Source: Bacteroidota bacterium
GTDB lineage: Bacteria; Bacteroidota; Ignavibacteria; Kryptoniales; JAKASW01
Assembly: GCA_021845665.1 (NCBI GenBank)
Contig: JAJZVO010000005.1
Span: forward strand, 17,422-81,421
Direction of reading: 5' to 3'
DNA length: 64,000 nt
Positions 4,095-21,424 of the stretch are shown here, piece after piece; positions within the stretch are counted from its first letter, which is position 1, and the number at the start of each line of letters is the position of its first letter. Both the position numbers and the translations under genes were made by a program. The notes under the pieces were generated by a model that saw only the letters and a list, made by a program, of their open reading frames with translations, was not told the DNA's origin and did not search any database.

Positions 4095-4298
4095 GAATCC
4101 GAGCGGACGCAAGCATCGCCACCTCTCTGTGTTTCTCTGTGCTCCCCCGGTGAATCTCCCGATGGGTCCTTCGAACTGTGCAATTGTTGTCTTCTTACAC
4201 CGGGTCAGCCGGAAATCCGCGGATTTCCACGGCGAATCCGTTCTGAGCTCCCCATTGTCCGCCTTCGTCGCTCTTTCCATCGCGCAAGTTCTCAAATC

Positions 4299-7295
4299 TC
4301 ATCTCTCATTTCTGACATCACGGTGAAAACTCTCCGGCGGACCGAGATAGCTCTTCCTCACTCCACCGGCGTTAACCACAATTTTCTCGAGCACAACGCC
4401 CGGGTCGACCATCCAGATCTTCAGAGTGTGATATCCCGGTTTGTCGATTGTGAATGAAGTAAAACTCTTTCTGACATTGTCCTCGACCGTCTTGTTCCAG
4501 TCGGCTCCCGAGCCGGCGTCATAATCGGCGGGGACGAGCGTGACGGTTTTGGGAGTGCCGTTGTCGATGGAAATCGCATACTGAAGTTCGCGGCCCGGCA
4601 TAAAATTGAGAGTCGGGCTGAAAATTCCTTCCACACCGACCTTACCCGCTTTAAGCAAAAACATTCTATACTCGATGCATGGAGAATCTTTTCCCGGCAC
4701 CGCAGGCGGCGCATCGACCGGCGATATCGCTCGCATACCTGAATGCGTGTTTCCATAACCCTGGATATTTATCCACCGGTTTTTGCCGGCATCGGTGAGC
4801 CTGGAATAATGGGCCGCTTCAATTGAGACGCATCCGTCCTCTTCAACAAAACCTCTCAGCGTGTTCCGGGTAACCGCGGCAGGATTCATTACGTTTACCC
4901 TGACCGGCACTTCCTCATTGGTTCCGCGGATCGTAACGGTACCTTGCGATGAACCTTCAGGGACCCTGCCCCAATCTATTGCCACCACTATACGGACTTG
5001 TCCTCGGACCTCTCCCTTAGGATGAGTAACCGTTATCCACGGTTTGTCGGCGACGGCGGTATACTCGAAAGGCTTTTTACCTTTGTTGAACACTTCTATA
5101 TAATGATGAGTCTCGTTGAACGGATCGAAACCCGGGAGGACGGGCTCAGCGGCCGGTCCCGGCCATGCCGATTCGGAACCGTCGATGGCAACTCCCATCG
5201 ATGCGGCATCAGAAACGGTGATATCCTTGAGGTCGACCGCATCGAGATTGTTCTCGCGCGGCTGATTCCAGCCGGTGTACCCGATGAACGGCTGGTCCAT
5301 GAAACCGTCCCATTTCGCGTGATCGAAAGTATGATTGAAATATCCCATCAGGCTCGTGTCGGCGGCGAACAGCTCGCGGGTCTTCGCAGCCATCTCGTTG
5401 GTAGTCGCACGGTCCTGACTGGCGTATAGCTCGTTCCGGCCCGCTGCGTAGTACATGTCGTTCAGGATGTACGATGCCTTCGTCGGGAAGAGGACGAGCT
5501 CATAGAATGCCTTCCGCTCGCCGGAAGGGATTTTCCTGTAAATGTTTTCGGCCTCGTCCGTGATCTTTTTGAAATTGCCGATTACATTTGCCGCTTCGTG
5601 GTAGTTGACGATACTGTAAGTCGTGGGGCTGAGAAGTTCAGGTTTGCGTCTGCTGTTGTATTTCGAATATTTAAGGAGGATATTCGCGATCTGACCGGCG
5701 TATTTCTCACCAAACTGCTGCCTCGCCCACATGCGGGCATACTCGTCGATATTGTTATTCGTCCACCGGTTCGTGTTCCATGCGAGGTCCATGAAATATG
5801 AAATGGGCAGCTCATATCCTTTCAGATGTCCGACGTTGACGATCCAGATTCGGTCGGCGCCGTATTCTTTCGCGAGAGACATCTGATCCCATATTTTGGG
5901 AAGGGCATTCGTGTTGATCCACTGGTAGTTTCTCGGCCCGCCGTGATAATCGAAATGATAGTAGATTCCCGCTCCGCCGCTCCGTTTTCTTTCGGTCGCA
6001 TCGGGAAGGCGGCGGAGGTTTCCGTAATTGTCGTCGGTCCAGAGAATCGTGACGTAGTCCGGGACGCGGAAGCCGGCGTTGTAGTAACTCAGGACTTCTT
6101 TATAAGGACACCAGAGTTGGGGGATCTTTGCGACTTCCGGGTTCATCTCATCTGCCAGTATCTTCTCCTGAACCCTGACGATCTTACCGAGAAGAGTAGT
6201 GTCCTGCGTCAGCGTACCGCCGGGAATCATAGGAGAGTCGTTCTCGCCCCTGAGTCCGATCGTCACGATCTCGCTGTAGTTTCTATTCCGCTCTATGCCG
6301 CGCTTCCAGAAGTTTATGAGCGTGTCGGGATACTTTGCGAAGTTCCAGGGTCCGAGCGTTCTCATATACCGCCTGTCCCATTCCTTCTGCGCACGCATCA
6401 TCGGCTCCTGGTGAGATGTGCCCATGTAGATGCCGTACTTGTTTGCCATGACGGGATTCAGAGTGTCGTCCTCGTTGAAGGCGTTGTTCCACATTGCCGG
6501 CCAGAGGTAATTGGCTTTCAAACGGAGAAGAAGATCGAAGACTCTTTCGTAGAACCTGTGACCGTAGTTCGCTACCCCCTGCGGCACGGGCGGGTGAACG
6601 CTCTGTTTCGCGAAACCGTAGCGATGGATAACCCAGTTCGTCAGGTCGGGCCACTCGTCGTTCAGGAAAATGCCGCGATACTTGACTGAAGGGGGGCCCT
6701 CTTCGAAAGTCCCGGGCTTAACGTAAAGAGCGTCATGGTGTTTCGGCGGGACATCTGCCCACCAGCACCATGGCGAGACTCCGATTTTTTCAGACACGTC
6801 ATAGATGCCGTAGATGGTTCCGAGTTTATCGCTTCCGGCGATCACCAGCGCACGCGCAATGCCAGGGAAGGGCCTGTCGACAACTTTTACTATGAACGAC
6901 TCCCATTTCCCGTCGATTTCCCCTACGTCGATTTTCCTTTGATCGATCAGCCTGGTTATGAGCGGACTTTTGCCGATCGTACCTGCGACGACAATGTCGT
7001 TCGCCGATGGAAGTTTAGCCGTCGAGAGTCCGGGCTTCGCGCCCGTCACTTTAGCGATGTCGGACTGCAGATCGGTAAGCGCATGAATGACTCCCCAGTA
7101 ATCATCCGGGCTCGCATAAAGCGGCGCCGATTTACCCGAAGCTGAGAGTACAAATTCGCCGGGCTCATTCCGTGTAGTGATGTAGCTCTTCGCGCCCAAA
7201 GCAAACGAGTGAAGGGGGAAAGAGAGGATTATCGCGACGGTGATGACGGACGAAGAAGAAGAAAAGACATTCTGAATTTTCATTTTCGTGCTCAA
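4299..7295 (-). CDS. GH115 xylan alpha-1,2-glucuronidase, paralog 2
   Basis: 998 aa, colinear with paralog 1 and carrying the same motifs. Signal peptide VITVAIILSFPLHSFA. The C-terminal tail RKSYLGPPESFHRDVRNER is nearly identical to that of paralog 1. Confidence 0.9.
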   Translation of the reverse strand: MSTKMKIQNVFSSSSSVITVAIILSFPLHSFALGAKSYITTRNEPGEFVLSASGKSAPLYASPDDYWGVIHALTDLQSDIAKVTGAKPGLSTAKLPSANDIVVAGTIGKSPLITRLIDQRKIDVGEIDGKWESFIVKVVDRPFPGIARALVIAGSDKLGTIYGIYDVSEKIGVSPWCWWADVPPKHHDALYVKPGTFEEGPPSVKYRGIFLNDEWPDLTNWVIHRYGFAKQSVHPPVPQGVANYGHRFYERVFDLLLRLKANYLWPAMWNNAFNEDDTLNPVMANKYGIYMGTSHQEPMMRAQKEWDRRYMRTLGPWNFAKYPDTLINFWKRGIERNRNYSEIVTIGLRGENDSPMIPGGTLTQDTTLLGKIVRVQEKILADEMNPEVAKIPQLWCPYKEVLSYYNAGFRVPDYVTILWTDDNYGNLRRLPDATERKRSGGAGIYYHFDYHGGPRNYQWINTNALPKIWDQMSLAKEYGADRIWIVNVGHLKGYELPISYFMDLAWNTNRWTNNNIDEYARMWARQQFGEKYAGQIANILLKYSKYNSRRKPELLSPTTYSIVNYHEAANVIGNFKKITDEAENIYRKIPSGERKAFYELVLFPTKASYILNDMYYAAGRNELYASQDRATTNEMAAKTRELFAADTSLMGYFNHTFDHAKWDGFMDQPFIGYTGWNQPRENNLDAVDLKDITVSDAASMGVAIDGSESAWPGPAAEPVLPGFDPFNETHHYIEVFNKGKKPFEYTAVADKPWITVTHPKGEVRGQVRIVVAIDWGRVPEGSSQGTVTIRGTNEEVPVRVNVMNPAAVTRNTLRGFVEEDGCVSIEAAHYSRLTDAGKNRWINIQGYGNTHSGMRAISPVDAPPAVPGKDSPCIEYRMFLLKAGKVGVEGIFSPTLNFMPGRELQYAISIDNGTPKTVTLVPADYDAGSGADWNKTVEDNVRKSFTSFTIDKPGYHTLKIWMVDPGVVLEKIVVNAGGVRKSYLGPPESFHRDVRNER

Positions 7296-7401: not shown

Positions 7402-8676
7402 CTATTTCATCTTGTCACCTGGCAAGTATATTCTGAAATTCCCGCTGACCTGGAGCATGCCGAGCATGTAAAGCATACCGTCGTAGTAACGGTAATAACC
7501 AGACGGCACAGGTGCGTCCCACAAAGCTTTCACAAAGTCCTTCCGGTCTTTGTTCGTAGACGCCAGCGCGGCAACTGCGTTCATAGACACGAGACCGGTG
7601 CTGTGATCCTTCCCAAGCTCCTTGCCTTCAAGAGTGTACTGGTTTCCGTACGTATCTATTCCATGGCTGCTGAAGAAATGGAGAAGCCTGTTACACTCGG
7701 TGACTTCCCACGGGTCTGCCGCAAACCATTCATGATCGACGGCTACGTTCATTCCGACGCGCCATGCATCGAAGCGGAAATCGTTATGCCCGCCGTACCA
7801 TGATGTGACAGGAGTCCCATTGAAATTGCAGTAGTCAGGGCACAAGCCGGTTTGAGGATTCGCCGCTTTCTTCAGGAGTCCGCGGCTCGAATCGGCGGCT
7901 TCTCGCCAAAAACTATTGTCCCTATCTGCAAATCTCGCCCAGAGGTCATAGAAATGCGGAAGCTGGTACGATGGATCAGTGAACCTGTCGGCGCGTTTCG
8001 CCGGAACGAACACGACGAGCTTCTTCTTTCTGTTGAACATGTCGGTCACTCTTCCGTGATCCGGCTGAGAGTCTTTGCGGAGCATCATGTTGAGAATGTC
8101 CTGCGCCTGCTTCCTGTAATCGTAAATTCCTTTCCCGTTCCCCCATCTCGCGGAAGCGAAGAAGAGCGACATGACAAACCACGACTCGCCGTCCGACGCC
8201 GCATTCGAATCGAGCACGGCTCCGTCCGACTTGCAATGCCATGCGAAGTATCCCTTGTGCGGACCGCTCTTGTTCTGCATGTAAAGCTTCGCCCATTTCC
8301 ATATCCGATCGAATATGTCCTGCCTATTCATCTGAACGGCGATCATCATCCCGTAGGACATACCTTCGGTCCGGACATCGTGGTCGCTGACGTCTTTGAT
8401 ATATCCCATATTTGTCCCCACGGGATAGTAGACCCGCTGCGTTGAATCGTTCCCGAAGAAAAGCTGATGAAACGCAGCGTCAATCTTCCCCTTCACTTCG
8501 CTTTCGCTCTTATGGAGAAGGCTGACAAAAAGATCGGGATACTTCCCGGTAGAAATCGATCCCATGCCCCTGCTGTCGGACAAGACCGACGCGCGCACGG
8601 TTTTGCACATGGAGAAAGAGGCGACGACGATCAAAAGACACAAGGCAAAGTGTTTGGCGAGAGTTTTAGTATTCAT
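7402..8676 (-). CDS. GH8 reducing-end xylose-releasing exo-oligoxylanase (Rex-like)
   Basis: 424 aa with a signal peptide. Motifs DVRTEGMSYGMMIAVQMN, WKWAKLYMQ, GYFAWHCK, SYQLPHFYDLWA, DAWRVGMNVAVDHEWF and YYDGMLYMLGMLQVSGNFRIY closely follow the Rex8A-type GH8 pattern. Confidence 0.88.
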   Translation of the reverse strand: MNTKTLAKHFALCLLIVVASFSMCKTVRASVLSDSRGMGSISTGKYPDLFVSLLHKSESEVKGKIDAAFHQLFFGNDSTQRVYYPVGTNMGYIKDVSDHDVRTEGMSYGMMIAVQMNRQDIFDRIWKWAKLYMQNKSGPHKGYFAWHCKSDGAVLDSNAASDGESWFVMSLFFASARWGNGKGIYDYRKQAQDILNMMLRKDSQPDHGRVTDMFNRKKKLVVFVPAKRADRFTDPSYQLPHFYDLWARFADRDNSFWREAADSSRGLLKKAANPQTGLCPDYCNFNGTPVTSWYGGHNDFRFDAWRVGMNVAVDHEWFAADPWEVTECNRLLHFFSSHGIDTYGNQYTLEGKELGKDHSTGLVSMNAVAALASTNKDRKDFVKALWDAPVPSGYYRYYDGMLYMLGMLQVSGNFRIYLPGDKMK

Positions 8677-8797
8677 GCTTTCGATGTGAAGTACGATAGA
8701 TTTTATTGTTATCCGTGGAGAAGAAAAATCCCACCCCTAAAACGTACACCGGCTCCGGACGGAGCCGAAGCCGGTATACTAACCATAGGGAGGATAC

Positions 8798-11700
8798 TTA
8801 TTTGATTAACATCATTTTGTCCATGTGGACGTAACTCCCAGCGACCATCCTGACGAAATAGACGCCGCTAGCGTAGCTGTCCATATTGAACGATAACCGG
8901 TACACTCCGGCAGATTCTTTGGCGTTGACCAAAGTTGCGACTTCCTGACCGAGAACGTTGTAGACCTTCACCGTTACGTTCACCGCCTTCGGCAACTGGT
9001 ATTCGATAGTCGTCGACGGGTTGAACGGATTCGGATAGTTCTGCAGCAGGGCGAATGTCCTCGGAATGTTCGAGGACGGGTTGCTGGCCACTGCGGTTAG
9101 TGTGGTATCCGAGCTAACCGGCGGAGCCAACTCCGCCTGCACATTCGTGATGTCCAGCCCGGTCGTCGCGTTTCCACCCTGCAGGCCGAAGATCAACGAA
9201 TTGAATGCGGTCGCTGAAAGCGGGCTGTGCGAATCCATGATCGAAGCTGTCCAAACGTAACTGCTGTCGGGTTTGTACAGAGTCGCGCCGACAAGCTGTG
9301 ATCCGTTCCCTTCCGGAGCCACGGATATTGCAAATACGTAATTGCCAGTGTCAATTACCGCGCCCATCGGGGACTGATGCACGGCGGCCATCACATAGCT
9401 TCCTTTTCCGTTCGTGCTTTCCCACGGCTGGCTGACGACGGCACCGGCGTTGCCTTGCTCGGAATTCGTTACCTGCCAAATCGGCGACTGGGCGTTGCCA
9501 CTCGGCGGGATAAACAAGTAGCCGTTGTCCATATCGTTTGCGCCTGTCCACTGATAACCGACGGTCTGTGTGGAGTCGAGGTTACCCATGCTCGTATTGT
9601 ATAGACCGAAACTAAAGGAATTCGCTGCTTGGATGGGGCCACCGACGACCGCCAGATCACCGGTGATGTACAGGGTCGAATCCTTACCGTTGCGTCCCGA
9701 GGTAGGCGTAACGAGCGCGCCGAGGACCGCTGCGTGCTGGAAGTTCGGAATCTTCGAAGCACCGGAGATTGTGGTGTTACCGATTATCGAGCCGGGGGTC
9801 AGAGTCCAGCCGCCGGTGTTCTTTCCATAAATGCCCCACTCGCTTATGTAGTAATTGGACCAAGGCTCCTCGGGGATGCTTATGTCCGGACCGAGACTGT
9901 CGACCACGTCGGAGAAGATCATTCCGGTCATCTTTGGACCGCCTTCGACGCCGAACTCGATGGAGTTCAACGTGTCCGACCTAGTCTGAGAGGTGGTGTC
10001 TGTAAGGGTGGCAGCGTCCCAGTAAACGATTTGACCTGACGAGTTCTTCTGGATCAGGTAGTAACTGACCAGTTTTGAGCCGTTGGCCTGCGGATGAACT
10101 GAGAAAGCGAAATCATAGGTGTTGGTTCCCGTGGGCATAGCGGCCCGTGCCGGTGCCTGCTGGACCACATACGGGCCGAAGCCGACTGCACCGCCGTAAC
10201 TGCTGAGCCAGTCTCCACCCATAACTATCCACTGCGCTGCACCAGAACCGCCGAACGAATATGAGGACGGGAGTTCATCCGTACCGGACTGAGGTGAGAA
10301 CGTGTAGCCATAAGAGGCTGTGCTCTGTCCTTTCCAGTACGCAGAGTCACCGCTCGCGCCAGTAAGGACACCGGGGGTCAGAGTGTTGTAAATTCCGTAC
10401 CGCATTCCGCTGGGAACATCGGGACCTTCGCCGACGAAGGTCACTTTACCGGAAACAACTATGGCTCCGCTGGGGGCAGTAGTGCCGACAAGGGGATGCT
10501 TGAAGGCTCCACGGATGCCTGCCCAGGCTTTAACGACACCGCCGTTGAAGTTGGCGGAATCGCCGTTGTCGGTCACATTAAGAATCCATCCCGGAGCGTT
10601 CCAACTCGGGTCGATACCCCACAATGTCAGTGGGCTTGCTGTTGAGGTGTTCTGGACGAGCTGGACATTCTGGGCGTACCAGATAGTCCTAAGACCTGAG
10701 GAAGAGCCGCTAGCGTTGATGCCGAAAGTAATATAAACCGTATCAGTCATGGAAAAGCTCCCGTTAATCGGGATGCTGATGTTTTCCCACCCGGTAGAAG
10801 CGGTTTGAGAGGAGCGATAATAGCTGCCGATGGTGTAGTTAGTGTCTGCACCATTGTCAAACGGACCAGATGGCATCGTACTGGTAGCCTTCACAAGGAA
10901 GGTCTTCTGGCTCACATCGCCTTGTGCCATAAATAGTTGGAAATTGAAACTGTTGTAGTCGGCCATTGTTTTCCCCGCAGGGAGGACAACCTCGAGAAAA
11001 GGAGCCGAATTATAGTTTCTGTTGATGAATTTGAGTATATGGTTGGTCGGCGCATTGTCCTTGTTAATGGTGTCCTGAACGACGACAGCCGCCGCGTTTC
11101 CAGAGCCCCAGCTCATTACATTTAGCGAATCTCCGAGGCTGTCAGCTTTGAAGTTCCAGAGTTCGTTATTTCCGCTTGCGATCGCCATTGGAGTTCCCAT
11201 CGCATAGCCATGGGCTGCCACATTGCCGACGTAGAGATACTTCGACGTGCTGGTAGTGCTGGTCGAGAGCCAGGGATACACTCTAACGTAAAGGGTATCG
11301 CCAGCATTCAGGACCGTGTCCAACGCGAAGCTTGTGTCCATCACTGCGTCCTGGGGAAGCGGGGATATCTCTCCGAGCATTGTGGAATCCGCGAAACTGC
11401 TCTTGCCGGAATAAAAGACGGCTGCATTCATCTTGTTTATTCCTTTTGCTCCTATCAGCATCGATATTGAATCCAGGTGCATGCTGAAACCCATCTGAGC
11501 TGTGACCATGAACTGCACATACTGGGCGGAATCCGGCCCGGTCAGATTGAACCATGTTCCGGTTCCCGACGTTGTGCTTGTTGCCGCATTGGGGAGCAGC
11601 TTCTGAATGGGCGACGTCGCCCCGGTGGGCAGGGGCGCCGATGTCCCTCCAGACTGATAGTCTGCGGTCAAGCCGGCTACGGCTTCCGTGTCTGCAGTTA

Positions 11701-11833
11701 CGTTGCTCATGACCATCACGCTCGTGGTGCTATCGAGTGGCCAGGTGGCCAATGTCGTCTGCCCAAACGATAACCCGGCAGTGATCAGGACCATGGTAAC
11801 TGCTGTTAGAAGTGAACTTAAAAACGATTTCAT
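8798..11833 (-). CDS. Large secreted surface protein with T9SS (Por) type-A C-terminal sorting domain; function unknown, candidate glycan-binding protein
   Basis: The likely start is ATG 11833, preceded by GGAGG, with signal peptide MKSFLSSLLTAVTMVLITAGLSFG. The C-terminus NYPNPFNPSTTIEYQL..VYNVLGQEVATLV..GVYFVRM is a TIGR04183-type tail. The protein is rich in S/T/G and contains an internal duplication of about 250 aa. Confidence 0.75.
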   Translation of the reverse strand: MKSFLSSLLTAVTMVLITAGLSFGQTTLATWPLDSTTSVMVMSNVTADTEAVAGLTADYQSGGTSAPLPTGATSPIQKLLPNAATSTTSGTGTWFNLTGPDSAQYVQFMVTAQMGFSMHLDSISMLIGAKGINKMNAAVFYSGKSSFADSTMLGEISPLPQDAVMDTSFALDTVLNAGDTLYVRVYPWLSTSTTSTSKYLYVGNVAAHGYAMGTPMAIASGNNELWNFKADSLGDSLNVMSWGSGNAAAVVVQDTINKDNAPTNHILKFINRNYNSAPFLEVVLPAGKTMADYNSFNFQLFMAQGDVSQKTFLVKATSTMPSGPFDNGADTNYTIGSYYRSSQTASTGWENISIPINGSFSMTDTVYITFGINASGSSSGLRTIWYAQNVQLVQNTSTASPLTLWGIDPSWNAPGWILNVTDNGDSANFNGGVVKAWAGIRGAFKHPLVGTTAPSGAIVVSGKVTFVGEGPDVPSGMRYGIYNTLTPGVLTGASGDSAYWKGQSTASYGYTFSPQSGTDELPSSYSFGGSGAAQWIVMGGDWLSSYGGAVGFGPYVVQQAPARAAMPTGTNTYDFAFSVHPQANGSKLVSYYLIQKNSSGQIVYWDAATLTDTTSQTRSDTLNSIEFGVEGGPKMTGMIFSDVVDSLGPDISIPEEPWSNYYISEWGIYGKNTGGWTLTPGSIIGNTTISGASKIPNFQHAAVLGALVTPTSGRNGKDSTLYITGDLAVVGGPIQAANSFSFGLYNTSMGNLDSTQTVGYQWTGANDMDNGYLFIPPSGNAQSPIWQVTNSEQGNAGAVVSQPWESTNGKGSYVMAAVHQSPMGAVIDTGNYVFAISVAPEGNGSQLVGATLYKPDSSYVWTASIMDSHSPLSATAFNSLIFGLQGGNATTGLDITNVQAELAPPVSSDTTLTAVASNPSSNIPRTFALLQNYPNPFNPSTTIEYQLPKAVNVTVKVYNVLGQEVATLVNAKESAGVYRLSFNMDSYASGVYFVRMVAGSYVHMDKMMLIK

Positions 11834-12022
11834 TGTTCCTCCGAAGTTAATGTTGTGTTTACTACAATCGAGAAGAAGCCCGGTTTCCCCGAACCGTGTG
11901 GGTTGTACCAGGCCCAGACCAAACACAAGTCAGCAACAACTTCTCTCTACACCCGAGAGTAGGAAAGAGTTGCTCATCGTTATGTAACCTTGTTTCGTAC
12001 CACCTCCCTATAATTAGTGAAA

Positions 12023-12051
12023 GTGTAACTCGCTTCCGCAGCGAGTTACAC
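12023..12051 (-). terminator. Perfect 11-bp stem hairpin downstream of the beta-helix protein gene (terminator or attenuator candidate)
   Basis: GTGTAACTCGC-TTCCGCA-GCGAGTTACAC lies 13 nt past the stop at 12064. Only a short, interrupted T tract follows on the minus strand. Confidence 0.45.
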
Positions 12052-12063
12052 TTCACGACTTGT

Positions 12064-13932
12064 TTACTTCAAAAGCACAAGCTTCCTGGTTATTGAAACG
12101 CTGCCTGCCTGCAGGCGATAGAAATAGACTCCGCTTGCAAGATCGTTTCCGTTGAATGTCGCCGAATAATTGCCGGGTTGTTGCACACCGGAAACCAGCG
12201 TGGCAACTTTTTGACCCAGGACATTATAGACCGTAAGCGTAACCATCGCTCGCTTCGCTACGGAGTAATCGATCTGTGTAGTCGGGTTGAAAGGATTCGG
12301 ATAGTTCTGGCTCAACTTGAAAGTTGACGGAAGCGAGCTCCCGGGTTGCGGCGCTACCGCAGTTACAATCCCGGTCATGTCGCCGGTCATCTCAGCATTT
12401 GCGAGCAGCGTGTTTTCGGAAGACTCCTGGGCCTTCCATTGAGCATAATAGTCCGTCGTCCCGTTGCTTCCGTTCCACCAGTGATACAAGTCGCCCAACG
12501 GCAGTCCGTCGGTTCCGGCATGCATCAGTGTATCATTGGTGTAAGCCAGGTTTCCGGGGAGAGGCCATATCTGGTTGAGATCGCTGTCGGGATCGAACGC
12601 CCAATCGGCATTGTTGTCGGCACTCCAGTGATCGTAGAGATATGCCTCGGCGGAATCCACGTTCGTCAAAGGAGTAATGAAATCTGGATTGACGCCGTCG
12701 TAACGTCTGACGTTGGCCAGGTTCATTGTTGGAAATGCCTTTCCTCCGGTGCTTAAGGTGTCTGTGAAAAAATGCATCGTCGAGGCAATGATCTCCGTAT
12801 CGGGTTGGGGGACCTCGTCATTTAGCCTGTTTGAAATAAGACCCTGGCTGTAAGGGTTGTTCGTCATGTAGTTCAGGAGCCACGGCTCATAACAATAACT
12901 CGAGTTGACGAACAGGATGTGCCGCTGTTGGTCCGTGAACGGAACTGAGAATCCGAAGGTCGATACGCTGTCGATTGAAAATGCGCCGCTGGTCCCGCCT
13001 GCGGTGTCTTCGGCGGCATATTCTCCGAACATCCAGGGATTATCAAAAACGCAGTTCGCAACCACCAGGTTTTTCCACCAGCCGGATTCGAGAGGATACA
13101 TCATGATGTTTTCGAAAGTGCAGTGGTTGAACCAGACGTTGTTGCTGTATTCGGCACCTTCCTGCATCAACACATATCCCATATTGGCAAATGTGCAGTT
13201 GGTGAACGAAACGCTGTCAGTCTGCCAGCCGGTCGAATTGTACGGGAACGAGACCGCTCTTCCGTAATACCGGAGGTGGGTATCGATATCGTTTCTGAAG
13301 AAGCAGTTCGTGAAGGTTCCCTTGAAGTCCTTGGCCGTGACGGTCACAGCTCCGCCGCCGTTGCTCGCGACCGGGCAGTAGTCGAAAATCACATCGTCGA
13401 AGGTTCCGTGTTCGCCGACGCCGGAGAGGTCTGCGAGGGAATCATCTTCGATCTCCAGTGCGGAACCTACCTGAGTTCCTTCCGCCTGGTTGTTGGTCGT
13501 AGCATACAGCAGCCAGATGTTTTTCAAATAGATATTCCCGAAACAATCGAAGTTGAAGTTCTCGGTCACATTCCCCGTGGAAGTCCAGAGTATCATCGGG
13601 AGAGAGCCGGCTTGAGTGTTGCCGGGTTCCGGCCCGACGACGTTGAGAGTTTCTCCGGCAGGAATACTAATTGTGCCTGTCAGAACATATTGATCGTTGG
13701 CAAGCAACTTGAAGACCGTATTCGACAAATTATTCGTGTGATTCACCGAATCGGCATGCTCTACGACGCTGATGGAATCGTTGAGGGTCCCTTCCACGCC
13801 GTTCGGATTAGCCGTACTGATCGTGGCAAAGAGGCCCGGGACTGTCACCGTGTCCATGGCGGCAGACTGCGCAAACACCGACGCGGGAATCATAGCTGCC
13901 GTAAAGAGCAGCAGGTAGATAACCCTTTTCAT
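12064..13932 (-). CDS. Secreted right-handed beta-helix-like protein with T9SS type-A C-terminal sorting domain
   Basis: The likely start is ATG 13932, with signal peptide MKRVIYLLLFTAAMIPASVFA. Repeated NC(T/F)F.N turns (TNCFFRND, FTNCTFANMG, NHCTFENIMM, VANCVFDNPW) suggest parallel beta-helix coils. The C-terminus is NYPNPFNPTTQIDY..VYNVLGQKVATLV..GVYFYRL. Confidence 0.72.
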   Translation of the reverse strand: MKRVIYLLLFTAAMIPASVFAQSAAMDTVTVPGLFATISTANPNGVEGTLNDSISVVEHADSVNHTNNLSNTVFKLLANDQYVLTGTISIPAGETLNVVGPEPGNTQAGSLPMILWTSTGNVTENFNFDCFGNIYLKNIWLLYATTNNQAEGTQVGSALEIEDDSLADLSGVGEHGTFDDVIFDYCPVASNGGGAVTVTAKDFKGTFTNCFFRNDIDTHLRYYGRAVSFPYNSTGWQTDSVSFTNCTFANMGYVLMQEGAEYSNNVWFNHCTFENIMMYPLESGWWKNLVVANCVFDNPWMFGEYAAEDTAGGTSGAFSIDSVSTFGFSVPFTDQQRHILFVNSSYCYEPWLLNYMTNNPYSQGLISNRLNDEVPQPDTEIIASTMHFFTDTLSTGGKAFPTMNLANVRRYDGVNPDFITPLTNVDSAEAYLYDHWSADNNADWAFDPDSDLNQIWPLPGNLAYTNDTLMHAGTDGLPLGDLYHWWNGSNGTTDYYAQWKAQESSENTLLANAEMTGDMTGIVTAVAPQPGSSLPSTFKLSQNYPNPFNPTTQIDYSVAKRAMVTLTVYNVLGQKVATLVSGVQQPGNYSATFNGNDLASGVYFYRLQAGSVSITRKLVLLK

Positions 13933-14019
13933 TTTTCGTTTCTCCTCTTGGTTTGGTTGCCGAAGGAATCGCTTCGGCATGTTTGTGAAAATTTTTGAAA
14001 ACACATTTGCTCCAATCTC

Positions 14020-17000
14020 CTATAGTTGATACCGGACACCGAGATCTGCAGTGAGACCGTAGTTCACTTCGTTCGTGAAACCGCCTATGGACGGTTGAGC
14101 GGATCTGTCGAATTCGTCGTTTATGTTGCTTGCATCGAAATAGACCTGCAGCCCTTTCCACGGGAGGTCCTGCCTGACCTGTGCATCGATCCTGAAGTAG
14201 TTTTCGGTATAACCGTCCGCTACGGGATAATTCGATACGTAGCTGACGGAATTTCCCTGGAACAGGAAGGAAACTCTGGCTGCGAATCCTTCGTAATCAT
14301 ACCCAACGTATGCGTTCATTATATTGTTGGGCTGGTCGATCAGCCGTCCCGCAACTGAAGTATCCACGATGGCGATGGACCGGAGATGTGTGGTCGCGTT
14401 CACGAGAGTCACCTGGTCGATCACCGGATATCTGGCTGACGACGAGATTAAGGTGTAGTTAATGCCGGCGAGCAAACCGCTAAACGCACCGGGCAGGTAC
14501 CAGAAACGGGTCTCGAATTGAAAGCCGAGGCCTTTTACGTAAGCCAGATACTTGCTGTTCACATCTGTGTAGAAAATCGCGCCCTCGTTCGGTGTCACGC
14601 CTGTGACGTTGAATTTCGGGTTGGTATAACCCAGGAATCCGGGAGGCGGTGTGGCGAGGAGCGGGTACTGCGTGCCGTAGACAAAGTTCTTCAGGGTCTT
14701 GTAGAAACCATCCACTGAAAAGAGGCCCAGACTACTGCTGTACGCGGTAAGTATAAGGTCGTTATTGTAAGCCTGGCCCGGAGTAAGATATGGATTGGCT
14801 CCGTAAACTTGTTGCCGTGTGTAGCCCATGACGATATGCGGCGACAGGTCGGAGTAAGCCGGGCGTGCAAGTGTTTGAGTGTATGCAAAACGGAGGTTGA
14901 GCCAGTTCGTTATGTCGAACTTCGCCTGTACCATTGGAAGCCAGTAGTGATTCTGAGGATAGGCGGTCACCGTGTCTACGGGCTGAATCTTCGGATTGCG
15001 GGAGTCGACCATGTTGAACGCCTGGTACAATCCCTTATCCTGCTCAAAGCGTGCGCCTCCGACCACCATTAGAGGTCCTGCGTTTACCTGGGCCATCGCG
15101 TAGGCTGCATAGTACCTGTCGACATATTTGTAGTTATTCGCCAGGGTCTGATAAAGTCCGTCAAACCATCCGCCTGGCTGCGCGGAACTGAACAGTGGAC
15201 CACTTGCACTGAATAATGGATTAGAGGCGATATAGTTGACGATGCTGTTCATCAAACCGGAATTTGCCGCCCAATAGAAGGGACCGAATTCGTTGTTCAG
15301 GAAAGAACTGTACAAACTCGAATTGGTCGAGGTGAAGCTGGTTGCAGGGAACTTCCCCGCGGCGGAATCGAAAACGGCGTTAAATGTACGCGCGACGCCG
15401 GCCGTCATCGAGTCGGAAATAGCCACTCCGTTCGTCATAGTGGCGTACGGAGTATTCTGTGCATTCGTGATATAGTTGTAGTCATACTCTCCACCGAACT
15501 TGAAGTACCCGGAGACATCCGGTCCTGCAGTAAGAGGGATCTTGAAATCCGCCTTGTAGTGCTGCTTGTTTTCTTTGTAATCGGAGCTGAACAAATTGAC
15601 CGTCGTCAGATAATTCTGGGACGGGCCGAAATACGTATCCAGGCCGGTGAGATTCTGTGGCAGGACGTCCGCACCTACTCCTCCCGGCGCAACTCCTCCG
15701 GTCTGGTTGAATTGGAAATTCGGCTCCGGAGGAAGTAGATTCCGCGAATAAGTATTTGCAGCGAGCAGGTCCGCGGTCATGAATCCGAAATTGTTTTGCC
15801 ACTCCAGCGAGTTGACCGCTTCTGTAACCGAGTTTTTTGAATTGGAGTAGCTGAAATCCATGGGATGATTCTGATAATCGAGCTCCTGAGTATAGTCCTG
15901 AGCATTCGATGCCAGTTCACTGTACATGTTGACCGACCTGATAAGCCCGTCTGGGAGCTTGTAGTCGAGGATAGCGTTTGCACCATACCGGTTCCTGGTT
16001 TCAATGTGGCGGTCGAACGTAACATTCAGGACTTCCACCGGGGGATATCCGGTAGTAAAACCCGACTGAGTGGCCACACCGTAGCTGGCGTTCATGATGT
16101 CAGCATTTCGGTTGTAAGACTCGGCATCACCGAGGACATAGACTCCGAGCATATTATTGAAAAACCGGTCGCTCATCGACGCCACCGCCCTGTAGTTCCC
16201 GTAGGTGTTGGCCTTCTGACCGTACCCCGACTGCCAGAGGAGGTTGGTATGAAATCCCCGGGGAGCTTCCCTGAGCTGCATGTTTACAAATCCGCCTACG
16301 GCGTTTGCGTTCATGTCCGGCAGCAGGTCTTTGTAAACTTCAATCGTCTTGATCATATAAGGCGACACCATGGCGAGGTCGACGCTTCTGTCGTTGCTGA
16401 CTCCACCGGCTGTGAATCCCTGTGAGCTGACGCCTATCTGGTCGCTCCCGGTCGACGCCATAGTGACTCCGTTGACGGCTACCTCGTTGTACTGAGGCTG
16501 TATTCCGTTGATGACAACCTTCTGTGCCTCTCCGTCGCTGCGGGTGACAGATACTCCGGGCAGGCGGCCGATTGCGCCGGCGGCATTGAAGTCGGGCAGC
16601 GCCTGAATTTTTGCCGACGATACTATGTTGACGATCTTATTCGAAGCCAACTGCTCGTTGATTGCCTGCATCTGGCCTTCAGCCTGCGCTGTAACGACGA
16701 CGACCTTACCCTGAACCGCCGTGGCAGTAAGGTAAAAGTCCTTGGTGATCGTTTGGTTAGCAGGCACGTCCATTTTCTCGCTGGATGGGGAGTAACCGAC
16801 ATACTGCACTACTACGGTCTGCTCCCCTGATGGAACGTTGTGTATGACGAATCCGCCGTTGAGATCGGTCGATGCGCCGATGCTTGTCCCTTTGACGAGC
16901 ACCGTTGCACCCGGAAGGGCCTGCTTGGTTTCTTTATCGAACACCCTTCCTTGAAGTGTCGCGGACCCGGCTGCGAAAACCGTTTGAGCGGCGATGAATA

Positions 17001-17058
17001 TTACCAGACCTGTCGCGATCTGAAGTCTTGTGAGCAATTGCCTGAACAGCTTTGGCAT
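14020..17058 (-). CDS. TonB-dependent outer-membrane receptor with N-terminal carboxypeptidase-regulatory-like domain (SusC-like architecture)
   Basis: 1012 aa with a signal peptide. The CarbopepD_reg-like segment is LQGRVFDKETKQALPGATVLVKGTSIGASTDLNGGFVIHNVP, followed by a plug region (GRLPGVSVTRSDGE) and a long beta-barrel with alternating aromatic/Gly strands ending in GVRYQL. Confidence 0.9.
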   Translation of the reverse strand: MPKLFRQLLTRLQIATGLVIFIAAQTVFAAGSATLQGRVFDKETKQALPGATVLVKGTSIGASTDLNGGFVIHNVPSGEQTVVVQYVGYSPSSEKMDVPANQTITKDFYLTATAVQGKVVVVTAQAEGQMQAINEQLASNKIVNIVSSAKIQALPDFNAAGAIGRLPGVSVTRSDGEAQKVVINGIQPQYNEVAVNGVTMASTGSDQIGVSSQGFTAGGVSNDRSVDLAMVSPYMIKTIEVYKDLLPDMNANAVGGFVNMQLREAPRGFHTNLLWQSGYGQKANTYGNYRAVASMSDRFFNNMLGVYVLGDAESYNRNADIMNASYGVATQSGFTTGYPPVEVLNVTFDRHIETRNRYGANAILDYKLPDGLIRSVNMYSELASNAQDYTQELDYQNHPMDFSYSNSKNSVTEAVNSLEWQNNFGFMTADLLAANTYSRNLLPPEPNFQFNQTGGVAPGGVGADVLPQNLTGLDTYFGPSQNYLTTVNLFSSDYKENKQHYKADFKIPLTAGPDVSGYFKFGGEYDYNYITNAQNTPYATMTNGVAISDSMTAGVARTFNAVFDSAAGKFPATSFTSTNSSLYSSFLNNEFGPFYWAANSGLMNSIVNYIASNPLFSASGPLFSSAQPGGWFDGLYQTLANNYKYVDRYYAAYAMAQVNAGPLMVVGGARFEQDKGLYQAFNMVDSRNPKIQPVDTVTAYPQNHYWLPMVQAKFDITNWLNLRFAYTQTLARPAYSDLSPHIVMGYTRQQVYGANPYLTPGQAYNNDLILTAYSSSLGLFSVDGFYKTLKNFVYGTQYPLLATPPPGFLGYTNPKFNVTGVTPNEGAIFYTDVNSKYLAYVKGLGFQFETRFWYLPGAFSGLLAGINYTLISSSARYPVIDQVTLVNATTHLRSIAIVDTSVAGRLIDQPNNIMNAYVGYDYEGFAARVSFLFQGNSVSYVSNYPVADGYTENYFRIDAQVRQDLPWKGLQVYFDASNINDEFDRSAQPSIGGFTNEVNYGLTADLGVRYQL

Positions 17059-17743
17059 GTGCTTCTCCCTTTTTTGAATTGTAAAACAAACAACTTAGGT
17101 CAAAATCAAATTCTGATGTACCCGGCAGCGTAACTTCATAAAACGGCGCCGATGTTGCTGAATCTTAATTCAAGCCTCAATCAAATCTCGTGCAGCCTTT
17201 CCTTTCGTCATGTGTTTTCATAAATCGCACTCGCCTGTACCTCGACGCCACGGAGAAAGAATCAGCCCTTCCATTTCCCGGCTGAGATATATTACGAGGA
17301 TCTATTTGCCTGCGACAAAAAAGTGCCCGCCGCATCGACTCCGAACAGTTCAAAAGGGTGAGATGCGTATGGTGAGAAATTTCAAAGGGAGGGGTTTTAT
17401 CGTCATTCTCCCGGTCAGCCGTGGGGAGGTCTTTTTGCTCGATCATCGAAGCGACAAGGCAATCCGTGCCGTGGCCTTGGCCCAATAAAGCGGCGACAAC
17501 GGATTTGCTCTCCGCTGCCATGGTGCCGTCCATCCTTCGGGGAAAACCCGCCGGGGTTTGCGGATTAAAGAATCGCGGTAAACTTCTCCAAAGGACCGGT
17601 CCGGCTGTCTTTTCCGTGAATGTGGTGCTTGGACCTGTTGCGTGTTGCAGATGCATCGTACTTGCTGCTGCTCCATTTAGTTGGTGCGCTGTCGAATTCA
17701 ATCACGCACAATGGTGCACATATAATATTTATTTCCATGAAGG

Positions 17744-19297
17744 TCAACTTACTTCGAAAGCCTTATGTCTTTCTGCCAGCTCGTTCTGGATCTGAAGGTT
17801 CAGTTTCTTGTCGATGCCGTAGAAGAAGATCGCGACGACGCCGATGAAGAATGTCAGGGCCGGGTAAATGCTCGACGCCATTCGGATTCCGAACAAGGCG
17901 TGAGCCGTCTGTGCGACATTAGGCACATAGCCGTATGCAGAGAGTATCCAGCCGCAGATTGCGCCGCCTAACCCGAGCCCAGCCTTCAGACCGAAAACTA
18001 TTCCCGCGAATACCAGCCCCGTAGCCCGCCTGTTGGATTTCCATTCGGAGTAATCCGCGACGTCAGCCATCATGGCCCAAAGGAGCGGGATTGTTGGCCC
18101 GTAAGCGAGTGACTTCAGAATGTTGAACAGAAACGCCATACCGATGGCCTGGGCGGGTAACAATATGAACAAACCTGTGAAGAGCGCCGTGAAGAATAGC
18201 CCGATCATGAATACAGCTTTCTTGCCGAAGCGTGCTGCAAGGGCAGTTGAAACGATGACGCCGATTATGGTTACGAATTGTCCTGCCATGTTGAACAGGC
18301 TGAATCCCACAGATGCGGTATTGCTCCCGTCTTTGCTTACGATCAGCCCGAAAGCGTTCATGATGCCGTACACAAACCCGCCGTGTCCCGAACTGACTTT
18401 TCCGAGACCGATCGACTGGAGGAAATTAAAGAGCGCGTTCTTGTCGGCGTAGTATGTGAAATAGTAGAACATCCCGCTTCCCCACATCGCGAGCGTGATG
18501 AAGACGAACAACGTGGCGACAAACATCGAAATCCACGGTCCGGTCTTCAGCAGTCCCAGGAGATCCTTCTTCGGAGAGGACTTCTGCCTGGGATCCGGTT
18601 TTATTCTCTCTTTGGCCGAAAGGAAGGTTATGAAAAGAAAGACAACTATTATGATACCATAGACGCCCATCGTCATCGACCATCCCTTCTGGGCATCTCC
18701 ATGGCCGAACTTATCGACCAGCGGAAGTGTCAATCCCTGGACCAGGAAAGCAATCGACATTGAAAAGAAGAAGCGGAAAGAAGACAGAGATGTCCTTTCA
18801 TTTACATCGCCTGTCATTACGCCGTTGAGCGCGGAGTAAGGCGTGTTGTTCATCGAATAAAAAGCCATCAACAGGATGTAAGTCACATAAGCATAGACGA
18901 GTTTTCCCGTGGCGCCGAAATGGGGTGTAGTAAATGCGAAGATGAAAACAGCGGCAAACGGAACGGCCGTCCATAAGACCCAGGGACGGAACTTGCCCCA
19001 CTTCGTCTGTGTCTTGTCGGCCATGATACCGACGAAGGGATCAAAGAACGCATCCCAAAAACGTCCGACCAGCAATAGTATTCCTGCCGAGACAGCGCTA
19101 ATGCCGAAGACATCTGTGTAAAATGGAAGCTGGAATATCAACATCGTCTGGAAAACGAAATTCGCCGCACCGTCCCCTAGACCGTACCCGACTTTTTCCC
19201 TTACCGAAAGTTTACCGAACGCCTCGCGCACGGCGGCTTCTGCCGCGTTTCTCTTCGCGTCATCGCCCGGAAACAGTCCTTCAGTGCTATTCTCCAA
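17744..19297 (-). CDS. GPH-family glycoside/pentoside/hexuronide:cation symporter (xyloside transporter-like)
   Basis: 517 aa, about 12 TM. Contains the LSVREKVGYGLGDGAANFVFQ signature of the MelB/XynT/YicJ family. The track start is a TTG; an in-frame GTG just before REAFGKLSVREK would give a more typical N-terminus, so the start is uncertain. Confidence 0.85.
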   Translation of the reverse strand: MENSTEGLFPGDDAKRNAAEAAVREAFGKLSVREKVGYGLGDGAANFVFQTMLIFQLPFYTDVFGISAVSAGILLLVGRFWDAFFDPFVGIMADKTQTKWGKFRPWVLWTAVPFAAVFIFAFTTPHFGATGKLVYAYVTYILLMAFYSMNNTPYSALNGVMTGDVNERTSLSSFRFFFSMSIAFLVQGLTLPLVDKFGHGDAQKGWSMTMGVYGIIIVVFLFITFLSAKERIKPDPRQKSSPKKDLLGLLKTGPWISMFVATLFVFITLAMWGSGMFYYFTYYADKNALFNFLQSIGLGKVSSGHGGFVYGIMNAFGLIVSKDGSNTASVGFSLFNMAGQFVTIIGVIVSTALAARFGKKAVFMIGLFFTALFTGLFILLPAQAIGMAFLFNILKSLAYGPTIPLLWAMMADVADYSEWKSNRRATGLVFAGIVFGLKAGLGLGGAICGWILSAYGYVPNVAQTAHALFGIRMASSIYPALTFFIGVVAIFFYGIDKKLNLQIQNELAERHKAFEVS

Positions 19298-20320: not shown

Positions 20321-21424
20321 TTATTTGTCCATTGAATTCAAAGCAAAGGCGTAGGCACCGATCGCTATGGCTTTACTGGTGCCGATCTTTGAAATACCGA
20401 CTCCAATCCTCATCTCCGAGTCATATTTAACCTTTTTCTTTGAACCATAGACGGCTATCTCCTTCGTTGAGCCGCGCACAAATCTCTCCCGGTCTGCTTC
20501 GTTCTCGAGGTTATAAACGTTGGCGGCAAGGCGACGGAACTTGCTGCCGTTAGGACTTGTGAACGTGCCGTTCATCTCGTCAACCAAATAGGGAAGGAAA
20601 ACGGATGAAGCGCCAGCGAGGCCTCCGCCTATCACTACCAATCCATCGATCAGCGTTATCGCATTCGATATCGCGTCGCCCGTCGCCTCAGCCATTTCTC
20701 TAAAGGCTGATATTGCGGCTTGCTTATTACCTTTCTTTTCTCCGATTGCTATTTCATATATGTCCTTCGGCTCGGGGGTTTCTTCGAATTTGATATTAGC
20801 TTCTTTAGCGTAACCTCTTTTCACACCTCTTATACTAGCGTGCTCTTCGACATTCATAACCGGATTGAGTTTGTCCCTGAGAAGCCAGACCTCTCCGGCG
20901 ATCGAATTATCTCCGACGAAGAGGGTGCCGTCTCGCACGATGCCCCCTCCGAATCCGGTGCCAAGAGTCAGACCTAGAAGGTTCTTGTATCTCTTTGGAC
21001 TTTCTCCTTTTTCGAGAAGTTGGTTGACGTAAGGGAGAAAACCCGCGATCGCTTCGCCGTAAGCGTAAAGGTCGCCATCGTTATTTATGAAAACGGGGAG
21101 GCCAAATTTCTCCTCGAGCATCGGGCCAAGCGCAATGCCGCCTCGAAACGCGGGGAGGTTTGGAAGATCTCCGATTATTCCGTTCGGATAGTCTGCCGGA
21201 CCGGGGAAGGCAAAGCTGACCGCCACGGGTTTTTCTTTCAATCCGGACTTCACCCGGTTGAATCCCTCCACGATGGCAGCCATGCAGCGATCCAGATTGT
21301 CCGCATTGGAAGGGAGAGTGATCTCTTCCAGAACTTGCTTGTTTCCACTTATCGCCGTGAATACCAGATTCGTTCCCCCTGCGTCCAGGGTCATTACTGT
21401 TCGTTTATCATTATCGTACTTCAT
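20321..21424 (-). CDS. ROK-family sugar kinase (glucokinase/hexose kinase-like)
   Basis: 367 aa. Motifs LDAGGTNLVFTA (phosphate-1), GLTLGTGFGGGIV and VIGGGLAGA. No N-terminal HTH, so it is a kinase rather than a repressor. Confidence 0.85.
   Translation of the reverse strand: MKYDNDKRTVMTLDAGGTNLVFTAISGNKQVLEEITLPSNADNLDRCMAAIVEGFNRVKSGLKEKPVAVSFAFPGPADYPNGIIGDLPNLPAFRGGIALGPMLEEKFGLPVFINNDGDLYAYGEAIAGFLPYVNQLLEKGESPKRYKNLLGLTLGTGFGGGIVRDGTLFVGDNSIAGEVWLLRDKLNPVMNVEEHASIRGVKRGYAKEANIKFEETPEPKDIYEIAIGEKKGNKQAAISAFREMAEATGDAISNAITLIDGLVVIGGGLAGASSVFLPYLVDEMNGTFTSPNGSKFRRLAANVYNLENEADRERFVRGSTKEIAVYGSKKKVKYDSEMRIGVGISKIGTSKAIAIGAYAFALNSMDK

Follow-up and report, generated by a model that had tools for sequence, protein, structure and literature searches.

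A TonB-dependent receptor paired with a beta-helix protein that carries a type IX secretion tail, in a glucuronoxylan locus of an Ignavibacteria bacterium: a possible SusD-independent route of glycan capture

How does a bacterium capture and import fragments of a large polysaccharide through a TonB-dependent receptor when no SusD is encoded beside it? This question is raised by a 64,000-nt stretch of DNA (hereafter, the window; contig C30:17422-81421, JAJZVO010000005.1) from the 4.64-Mb genome, in 135 contigs, of a Bacteroidota bacterium of the class Ignavibacteria (GCA_021845665.1). Glycan uptake in the Fibrobacteres-Chlorobi-Bacteroidetes (FCB) group is generally read through the SusC/SusD pair, and predictors of polysaccharide utilization loci (PULs) seed on susC/susD gene pairs. 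In the window, a receptor gene within a glucuronoxylan locus is followed by genes for two proteins, denoted here P2 and P3, that end in type-A C-terminal domains (CTDs) of type IX secretion systems (T9SS). A preliminary description of this DNA took the receptor to be a stand-alone SusC-like protein and proposed that the two CTD proteins substitute for the SusD/E/F glycan-capture components. According to the open reading frames (ORFs) in the window, the genes in question are all on the minus strand, and the three central ones are:

14020-17058, minus strand: TonB-dependent receptor, 1012 aa (PF13715, PF13620, PF07715, TIGR01782)
12064-13932, minus strand: P2, 622 aa from the ATG (signal peptide, beta-helix, alpha/beta region, type-A CTD)
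8798-11833, minus strand: P3, 1011 aa from the ATG (signal peptide, four beta-sandwiches, type-A CTD)

These coordinates, and the gaps of 87 nt between the receptor and P2 and of 230 nt between P2 and P3 that follow from them, agree with the preliminary description. Our principal finding is that P2 is the constant, dedicated partner of this receptor clade. With regard to function, we lean towards the view that the receptor, P2 and P3 jointly make up a SusD-independent capture and import module for glucuronoxylan.

Judging by its sequence, the receptor is not a member of the SusC family. It consists of a signal peptide, an N-terminal CarboxypepD_reg domain (PF13715, residues 35-122, E 9.6e-22), a plug (PF07715, residues 140-256) and a barrel similar to that of TonB-Xanth-Caul receptors. 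The SusC model TIGR04056 matches residues 34-244 only, that is, the CarboxypepD_reg domain and the plug, with a score of 55.2 bits (cut-off, 368.25). TIGR01782 (TonB-Xanth-Caul) aligns with residues 120-1011 over model positions 4-867 of 868 at 288.2 bits and is the best-fitting barrel model, although this score is below the threshold of 310. Close relatives of the receptor in Ignavibacteria and in Bacteroidota metagenome-assembled genomes (MAGs) are named either TonB-dependent receptor or carboxypeptidase-like regulatory domain protein, never SusC. In the entire genome, exactly two genes exceed the TIGR04056 cut-off, both on contig C86, and about 38 other receptors match this model in the N-terminal region only. 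A whole-genome six-frame search with PF07980 and PF14322 likewise yielded SusD matches on C86 only and none at the window locus, which bears out the earlier statement that SusD is missing there; the tandem susC-susD arrangement that defines a canonical PUL is accordingly not present at this locus. Because the receptor is not of the SusC type, the rule that SusC needs SusD is inapplicable, so that the absence of SusD is real but no anomaly. Thus, the SusC-like label does not hold, and neither does the notion of a stand-alone receptor, given the dedicated partner P2.

We also considered an orphan SusC that borrows a distant SusD. This possibility was ruled out: the sole two SusD-like genes of the genome adjoin SusC genes of their own, and no SusD elsewhere pairs with the receptor of the window. 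In the C86 region itself (C86:60028-70516), the two SusC genes, which are genuine members of the family at 485 and 466 bits, are arranged in tandem within approximately 10 kb, each beside a weak SusD-like match. The same contig bears a receptor-P2-GH76 locus (GH, glycoside hydrolase) and, hence, both architectures coexist in one genome.

The partnership between the receptor and P2 is apparent, first of all, within this genome. Whole-genome searches identified 21 full-length receptor paralogs (phmmer, E <= 1e-121) and, after one iteration with a hidden Markov model (HMM), 20 full-length genes of the P2 superfamily plus two fragments at contig ends. P2 is encoded downstream of 18 of the 21 receptors. 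In 16 of these loci, the two genes are 5-300 nt apart; in another one, a 359-aa ORF intervenes, and in yet another one, P2 is located one gene further. The three unpaired receptors end 0.6-1 kb from a contig edge. Across the 18 pairs, the identity matrices of the receptors and of the P2 cores (CTD removed) are strongly correlated (Mantel r=0.78, with none of 5000 permutations as high), which implies that the receptor-P2 pairs were duplicated and diverged as units. The intervening 359-aa ORF (C41:24224-25303) belongs to a locus with a heparinase II/III-like lyase and has no Pfam match.

The same linkage was observed in other genomes. In all 20 foreign loci inspected, two of which come from other classes of the phylum, the C-terminal part of the receptor (the last 250-450 residues, within 1.5-kb flanks) adjoins P2. 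A contig scan with the P2 alignment matched almost exclusively the CTD, through its motif LxQNYPNPF, and CTD-less queries were used for P2 in the class-wide comparison instead. Of 151 genomes sampled evenly across the class, 32 contain the P2 superfamily and 29 the receptor clade; P2 was detected in 29 of the 29 receptor-positive genomes compared to 3 of the 122 receptor-negative ones, where all matches are weak and partial (Fisher p=5e-28). At least 66 of the 79 foreign receptor matches are followed by P2 on the same strand within 3.5 kb, at a median gap of 145 nt. Furthermore, three contexts from different lineages consist of a receptor with CarboxypepD_reg and plug domains, a P2 homolog, a CTD protein of 885-1305 aa and then GH30, GH8 or GH10, and two additional contexts, reached via P3 homologs, repeat this gene order. 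Among the MAGs with the succession of receptor, P2, large CTD protein and GHs are one of Marinimicrobia and one of KSB1, and three phylum-level lineages share this gene order. The P2 homologs show conserved linkage to TonB-dependent receptors of this clade. It could be argued that P2 and P3 are independent surface or secreted proteins that are situated in carbohydrate loci by chance, their adjacency to the receptor being without functional meaning, inasmuch as T9SS-tailed proteins are very common here (more than 150 CTD-bearing ORFs in the genome) and two P2-superfamily genes have no receptor beside them. Set against the complete co-occurrence, the 20 of 20 adjoining loci, the downstream position of P2 in at least 66 of 79 cases, the Mantel correlation and the identical gene order in three phylum-level lineages, this explanation appears very improbable.

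The loci headed by these pairs differ in content, and target xylan, starch, mannan, cellodextrin and uronate glycans. Apart from the window locus, the neighbors of the pairs in this genome include, by Pfam assignment (CBM, carbohydrate-binding module):

C54 pair: GH10-CTD and GH43-CBM6-CTD proteins
C4a pair: a P3 paralog, GH10-CBM4_9-CTD and GH30
C135 pair: GH13 alpha-amylase
C129 pair: a major facilitator superfamily (MFS) transporter and GH94 phosphorylase
C41 pair: heparinase II/III-like lyase
C4b pair: CE15 glucuronoyl esterase-CTD
C56 pair: GH92
C86 pair: GH76-CTD
C134 pair: GH2
C68 and C26 pairs: RCC1-repeat CTD proteins
C107 pair: Big_5 CTD protein

Because the pairs head loci with different carbohydrate-active enzymes (CAZymes), P2 is not tied to one substrate. 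The idea that P2 is a xylan-specific enzyme was rated low, because its paralogs belong to loci that serve at least six types of glycan other than xylan. The third position after the pair is variable, being occupied by P3-family, RCC1-repeat, Big_5 or FG-GAP/ASPIC proteins, and P2 is constant, so that the roles of P2 and P3 are unequal.

Some further details concern individual loci. On C26, the large RCC1-repeat (beta-propeller) CTD protein (C26:28954-31623) directly follows P2, and on C68 such a protein (C68:14754-18014) lies one CTD gene beyond P2, in both cases roughly in the slot of P3. Directly downstream of a pair on C101, where a third surface protein or enzymes would be expected, there is a group II intron reverse transcriptase/maturase (C101:36-1472; RVT_1 and GIIM). 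In the CE15 locus, P2 is directly followed by a 639-aa protein with PPIC-type peptidyl-prolyl isomerase domains, similar to SurA/PpiD (C4:43001-44920), which is unusual beside an uptake pair of the outer membrane.

What kind of protein, then, is P2? The AlphaFold2 (AF2) model of P2 (predicted local distance difference test score, pLDDT, 84.7; predicted template modeling score, pTM, 0.79) comprises a right-handed beta-helix whose strands stack between residues 72 and 299, a region of mixed alpha/beta structure (300-520) and a CTD sandwich (539-620). The N-terminus (MKRVIYLLLFTAAMIPASVFAQSAAMDT) is a signal peptide of the signal peptidase I (SPI) type that contains no cysteine and, hence, no lipobox. 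In a Foldseek search of BFVD, the best match was a 'Pectate lyase superfamily protein' (E 9.9e-4, probability 1.0, 327 aligned columns), and tailspikes were retrieved as well. Together with the model, these matches sustain the earlier characterization of P2 as beta-helix-like. The Beta_helix family PF13229 is sub-threshold in the P2 of the window (20.9 bits, cut-off 25.9) and matches 31 of 50 P2 homologs (best E 1e-7) and 10 of the 19 paralogs in the genome. To the extent that the model can be relied upon, the beta-helix fold is supported and membership of a specific family is not; P2 belongs to an unnamed superfamily. One distant paralog weakly matches DUF4957 (E 0.0033), which we regard as a lead only. 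Homologs of P2 number in the hundreds at about 50% identity, with named sources among Ignavibacteria, Marinimicrobia, KSB1 and Bacteroidota MAGs, and none is annotated beyond the CTD. No SusD-family match was obtained for P2, and the model is not of the alpha-helical tetratricopeptide repeat (TPR)-like kind. Sequence and profile searches of the PDB with P2 and P3 returned nothing beyond the CTD, and neither protein matches a catalytic Pfam or NCBIfam family, in accord with the preliminary description, which had recognized no catalytic family in either; nor did either one prove to belong to a known enzyme family unrelated to substrate capture.

The beta-helix of the pectate lyase superfamily nevertheless brings up the possibility of an enzymatic P2: a depolymerase of the endo type, a lyase or an esterase, belonging to a beta-helix family not yet known, that would work at the surface and generate transportable oligosaccharides beside the receptor in the manner of SusG, instead of serving as a binding partner. 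The many charged and aromatic residues conserved in the xylan subfamily would fit such a role, as would the fact that, in the window locus, Pfam searches of the genes revealed no T9SS-tailed endo-xylanase. However, the P2 superfamily spans loci for xylan, alpha-glucan, alpha-mannan, cellodextrin and uronate glycans, and we know of no beta-helix CAZyme family with such a range of substrates. Moreover, several P2 loci already encode CTD-tailed GH10, GH76 or CE15, no catalytic family was matched, and the invariant residues occupy rung positions about 25-30 apart, with no obvious catalytic cluster. Taking both sides into account, we consider an enzymatic P2 quite unlikely.

Apart from the CTD, the residues invariant across the 20 P2 paralogs lie mostly in helix rungs (N214, D239, T247, H270, T272 and N293) and in a motif, P..GD..W, on the C-terminal side (478-485). 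By contrast, the conservation of about 25 aromatic positions is confined to the subfamily of the xylan loci. As read from the alignments, this distribution of conserved residues suggests a conserved scaffold with a subfamily-specific surface. Sequence identity is highest (48-55%) for P2 relatives from xylan loci, both of this genome and of other MAGs, followed by the paralog of the GH13 locus with 33-40% and by the remaining paralogs with about 20-26%.

The conservation of the scaffold and of the C-terminal motif throughout the superfamily, along with strict one-to-one linkage and co-duplication whatever the substrate, would also be compatible with P2 acting as a substrate-independent structural or biogenesis accessory, that is, a cap, a stabilizer or a tether to the T9SS-anchored enzyme layer, with no part in glycan recognition. 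However, between loci, the P2 cores diverge more than the receptors (14-63% as opposed to 28-73% identity), and the subfamilies correlate with the substrate and possess conserved aromatics of their own, as expected of a determinant of specificity. An accessory of this type therefore seems unlikely to us. Rather, the position of P2 next to the transporter, the subfamilies that follow the substrate and the fold class lead us to propose a role for P2 in binding the substrate and delivering it to the transporter.

The case of P3 is different. Its AF2 model (pLDDT 83.6) shows an SPI signal peptide, a low-confidence S/T-rich linker, four beta-sandwiches (approximately residues 76-212, 223-394, 404-648 and 665-903) and a CTD at 928-1009. 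The last two sandwiches, D3 and D4, are a duplication (31% identity, E 6e-20), and this duplicated C-terminal half is the best-conserved part of the protein. Foldseek matched P3 in the PDB to SGBP-B of Bacteroides thetaiotaomicron (7kwb, E 1.8e-5), a surface glycan-binding protein (SGBP), and, in addition, to legume lectins, CBM11, a CBM of an alginate lyase, the mannose-binding YwfG and TtX122B. The P3 family is far narrower than that of P2: an exhaustive HMMER search returned 144 clusters at E <= 1e-30, some of them via the CTD alone. A paralog with 52% identity to P3 takes the corresponding slot in the genome's second xylan locus, as do P3 homologs in the xylan loci of other MAGs. With its tandem CBM-like sandwiches downstream of a transporter pair, P3 has the hallmarks of an SGBP, the resemblance being one of fold and position only, and on the strength of the model P3 is a probable xylan-specific surface glycan-binding protein of the SusE/F type.

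Both proteins appear to be destined for the T9SS. The CTD model TIGR04183 scores 45.2 bits for P2 and 41.9 bits for P3 (cut-off 23), PF18962 matches both, and the signal peptide of P3, like that of P2, lacks a lipobox cysteine, in agreement with the Sec signal peptides and type-A tails that had been ascribed to the two proteins. The machinery is encoded in the genome, with SprA_N at 148 bits (above the cut-off) and the PorU sortase at 905.6 bits (cut-off 420). The GldM model TIGR03517 gave no match in the genome, nor in control genomes, and so is uninformative. In Bacteroidota, type-A T9SS cargo is attached to the surface after CTD cleavage.

On both sides of the three central genes, the locus encodes the following:

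23446-24771, minus strand: Sugar_tr family monosaccharide (xylose-type) transporter (PF00083, E 7.3e-118)
21435-22607, minus strand: MFS_1 transporter (PF07690, E 5.4e-29)
20321-21424, minus strand: ROK-family regulator or kinase (PF00480, E 5.6e-21)
17744-19297, minus strand: GPH/MFS_2 oligosaccharide:cation symporter, the inner-membrane uptake step (PF13347, E 1.2e-89)
7402-8676, minus strand: GH8 glycoside hydrolase, 424 aa (PF01270, E 1.4e-35)
4299-7295, minus strand: GH115 alpha-glucuronidase, 998 aa (PF15979, E 1.3e-141; PF17829)
1029-4295, minus strand: second GH115 alpha-glucuronidase, 1088 aa (PF15979, E 6e-133; PF17829)
3-833, minus strand: GH43, N-terminal part only, as the gene runs off the window (PF04616, E 1.1e-31)

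The presence of GH8, two GH115 and GH43 genes downstream on the same strand, reported previously, is upheld by the Pfam matches. With a TonB-dependent receptor, these four hydrolases, the MFS_2, MFS_1 and Sugar_tr transporters and the ROK protein on one strand, the locus has the content of the carbohydrate utilization loci containing TonB-dependent receptors (CUT loci).

These observations can be combined into a scheme of glucuronoxylan capture and import. The transporter would be a TonB-dependent protein that joins a Xanthomonas/Caulobacter-type barrel to the CarboxypepD_reg N-terminus typical of Bacteroidota. P2 would be exported via Sec and then the T9SS, would probably be tethered to the surface once PorU cleaves the CTD, and would bind xylo-oligosaccharides at the mouth of the transporter and hand them over, as SusD does for SusC. 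P3, as a T9SS-anchored string of four lectin/CBM-like sandwiches, would capture xylan chains at the surface, similarly to the SGBPs of the SusE/F type. The imported oligosaccharides would then be trimmed by GH8, the two GH115 enzymes and GH43, in the periplasm or in the cytoplasm, and MFS_2 and Sugar_tr would carry the products across the inner membrane, presumably under ROK control. Within this scheme, surface anchoring, glycan binding, a physical complex and hand-over to the transporter are steps that we infer. The original idea that the two CTD proteins stand in for SusD/E/F survives in part: the linkage of P2 in foreign loci and genomes and the lectin/CBM-like folds of P3 lend it good support, whereas its premises, a receptor of the SusC type that stands alone, were wrong.

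One could go further and suggest that P2 forms a stable 1:1 complex with the transporter as a substrate-selecting extracellular lid, a convergent counterpart of SusD that is neither a lipoprotein nor TPR-like, and that this is a second general architecture of TonB-dependent glycan import, which replaces most SusC/SusD pairs in Ignavibacteria, KSB1, Marinimicrobia and some other FCB lineages. We put forward this extended proposal only tentatively, as a possibility that is more doubtful than the capture and import module as such.

Several points weigh against a role of P2 in glycan capture. Both glycan binding by P2 and its contact with the receptor are proposed here on indirect grounds. In Proteobacteria, receptors of the TonB-Xanth-Caul type function with no partner at the cell surface, the T9SS can release its cargo instead of anchoring it, and the fold of P2, the beta-helix of the pectate lyase superfamily, is common in glycan-cleaving enzymes, such that a catalytic role is possible. 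In the Foldseek comparison of P2 with the PDB, no match to the P2 body was found among the best 50 of 1070 (E <= 10), all of which are small CTD or Ig-like domains. Finally, two genes of the P2 superfamily, C30:93317-96253 and C124:893-2626, have no adjacent receptor. The former of these orphans encodes a 978-aa protein with fn3/Ig-like domains joined to the beta-helix core ahead of the CTD.

Comparison with known systems shows that this arrangement shares features with three of them. As in SusC/SusD systems, the transporter gene directly precedes the gene of a surface-exposed partner, both genes have been duplicated jointly, so that a genome contains many copies of the pair at the head of loci for various glycans, with sequence subfamilies in keeping with the substrate, and the receptor bears the N-terminal CarboxypepD_reg domain seen in SusC. 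As in SusC/SusD systems with SusE/F, the variable third position holds multi-domain beta-sandwich glycan binders, which are predicted ones in the present case. Unlike in these systems, the receptor barrel is not of the SusC family, P2 is a beta-helix rather than an alpha-helical TPR-like protein, P2 and P3 are T9SS type-A CTD cargo as opposed to lipoproteins, and the receptor-P2 complex and the binding are conjectural. The resemblance to the CUT loci of Xanthomonas and Caulobacter lies in the barrel, which TIGR01782 fits best (288 bits, just below the cut-off of 310), and in the combination of a TonB-dependent receptor with an inner-membrane MFS/GPH (glycoside-pentoside-hexuronide) transporter, a regulator and GHs, with no SusD. 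To our knowledge, however, the receptors of CUT loci have no dedicated surface partner and lack a CarboxypepD_reg domain, whereas the receptor described here is always accompanied by a beta-helix protein predicted to be T9SS-exported. The right-handed parallel beta-helix body of P2 resembles that of the pectate lyase superfamily, including phage tailspikes and CASH-type carbohydrate-binding/hydrolase domains, a fold that typically binds, and often cleaves, polysaccharides. In contrast to the pectate lyase superfamily, P2 possesses an additional conserved alpha/beta C-terminal region and a strict linkage to a transporter, and neither membership of a sequence family nor a conserved catalytic constellation was recognized.

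We found no description of the receptor-P2 pair in the literature searched; in the Melioribacter genome paper, only one SusCDE operon and Por-tailed CAZymes are mentioned (PMC3534657). What would be new about the present TonB-dependent glycan locus is the family of the partner, for which no description was found, and the route of anchoring, which differs from the known one. Because PUL predictors seed on susC/susD, receptor-P2 loci are invisible to them, and given that this genome contains 2 SusC/SusD pairs compared to about 20 receptor/beta-helix pairs, most of its capacity for polysaccharide uptake would go unnoticed or be annotated wrongly. A functional pairing would provide a marker gene pair for the prediction of glycan loci in Ignavibacteria, KSB1 and Marinimicrobia, as well as in related uncultured lineages of importance in sediments, sludge and soils. 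It would also add a new protein family, with a probable role in glycan recognition and a beta-helix as its scaffold, and would be a case in which the surface parts of a TonB-dependent import machine come from the T9SS instead of lipoprotein export.

The transcription of the three central genes may be shaped by two hairpins:

12017-12056, minus strand: hairpin of 17 bp with one bulged base and a 5-nt loop (RNA fold of 11820-12075)
8749-8768, minus strand: intrinsic-terminator-like hairpin of 8 pairs (6 G-C) with a T-rich tail (consensus scan only)

The former hairpin, which had already been noted in the gap between P2 and P3 and is indeed present there, starts 7 nt past the P2 stop and has no U-tract. 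It is possibly a partial terminator or an mRNA stabilizer between the receptor-P2 pair and P3, and may determine how much receptor and P2 is made relative to P3, either by partial termination or by protection of the transcript from 3' decay. The latter begins 30 nt past the P3 stop and, from its sequence features, likely marks the end of a receptor-P2-P3 transcription unit; the consensus scan detected no comparable terminator signal between the receptor and P2. On the upstream side, a 174-aa ORF without a Pfam domain (17177-17701, minus strand) occupies most of the 685-nt gap that precedes the receptor gene, and this gap may be a long leader instead of a gene.

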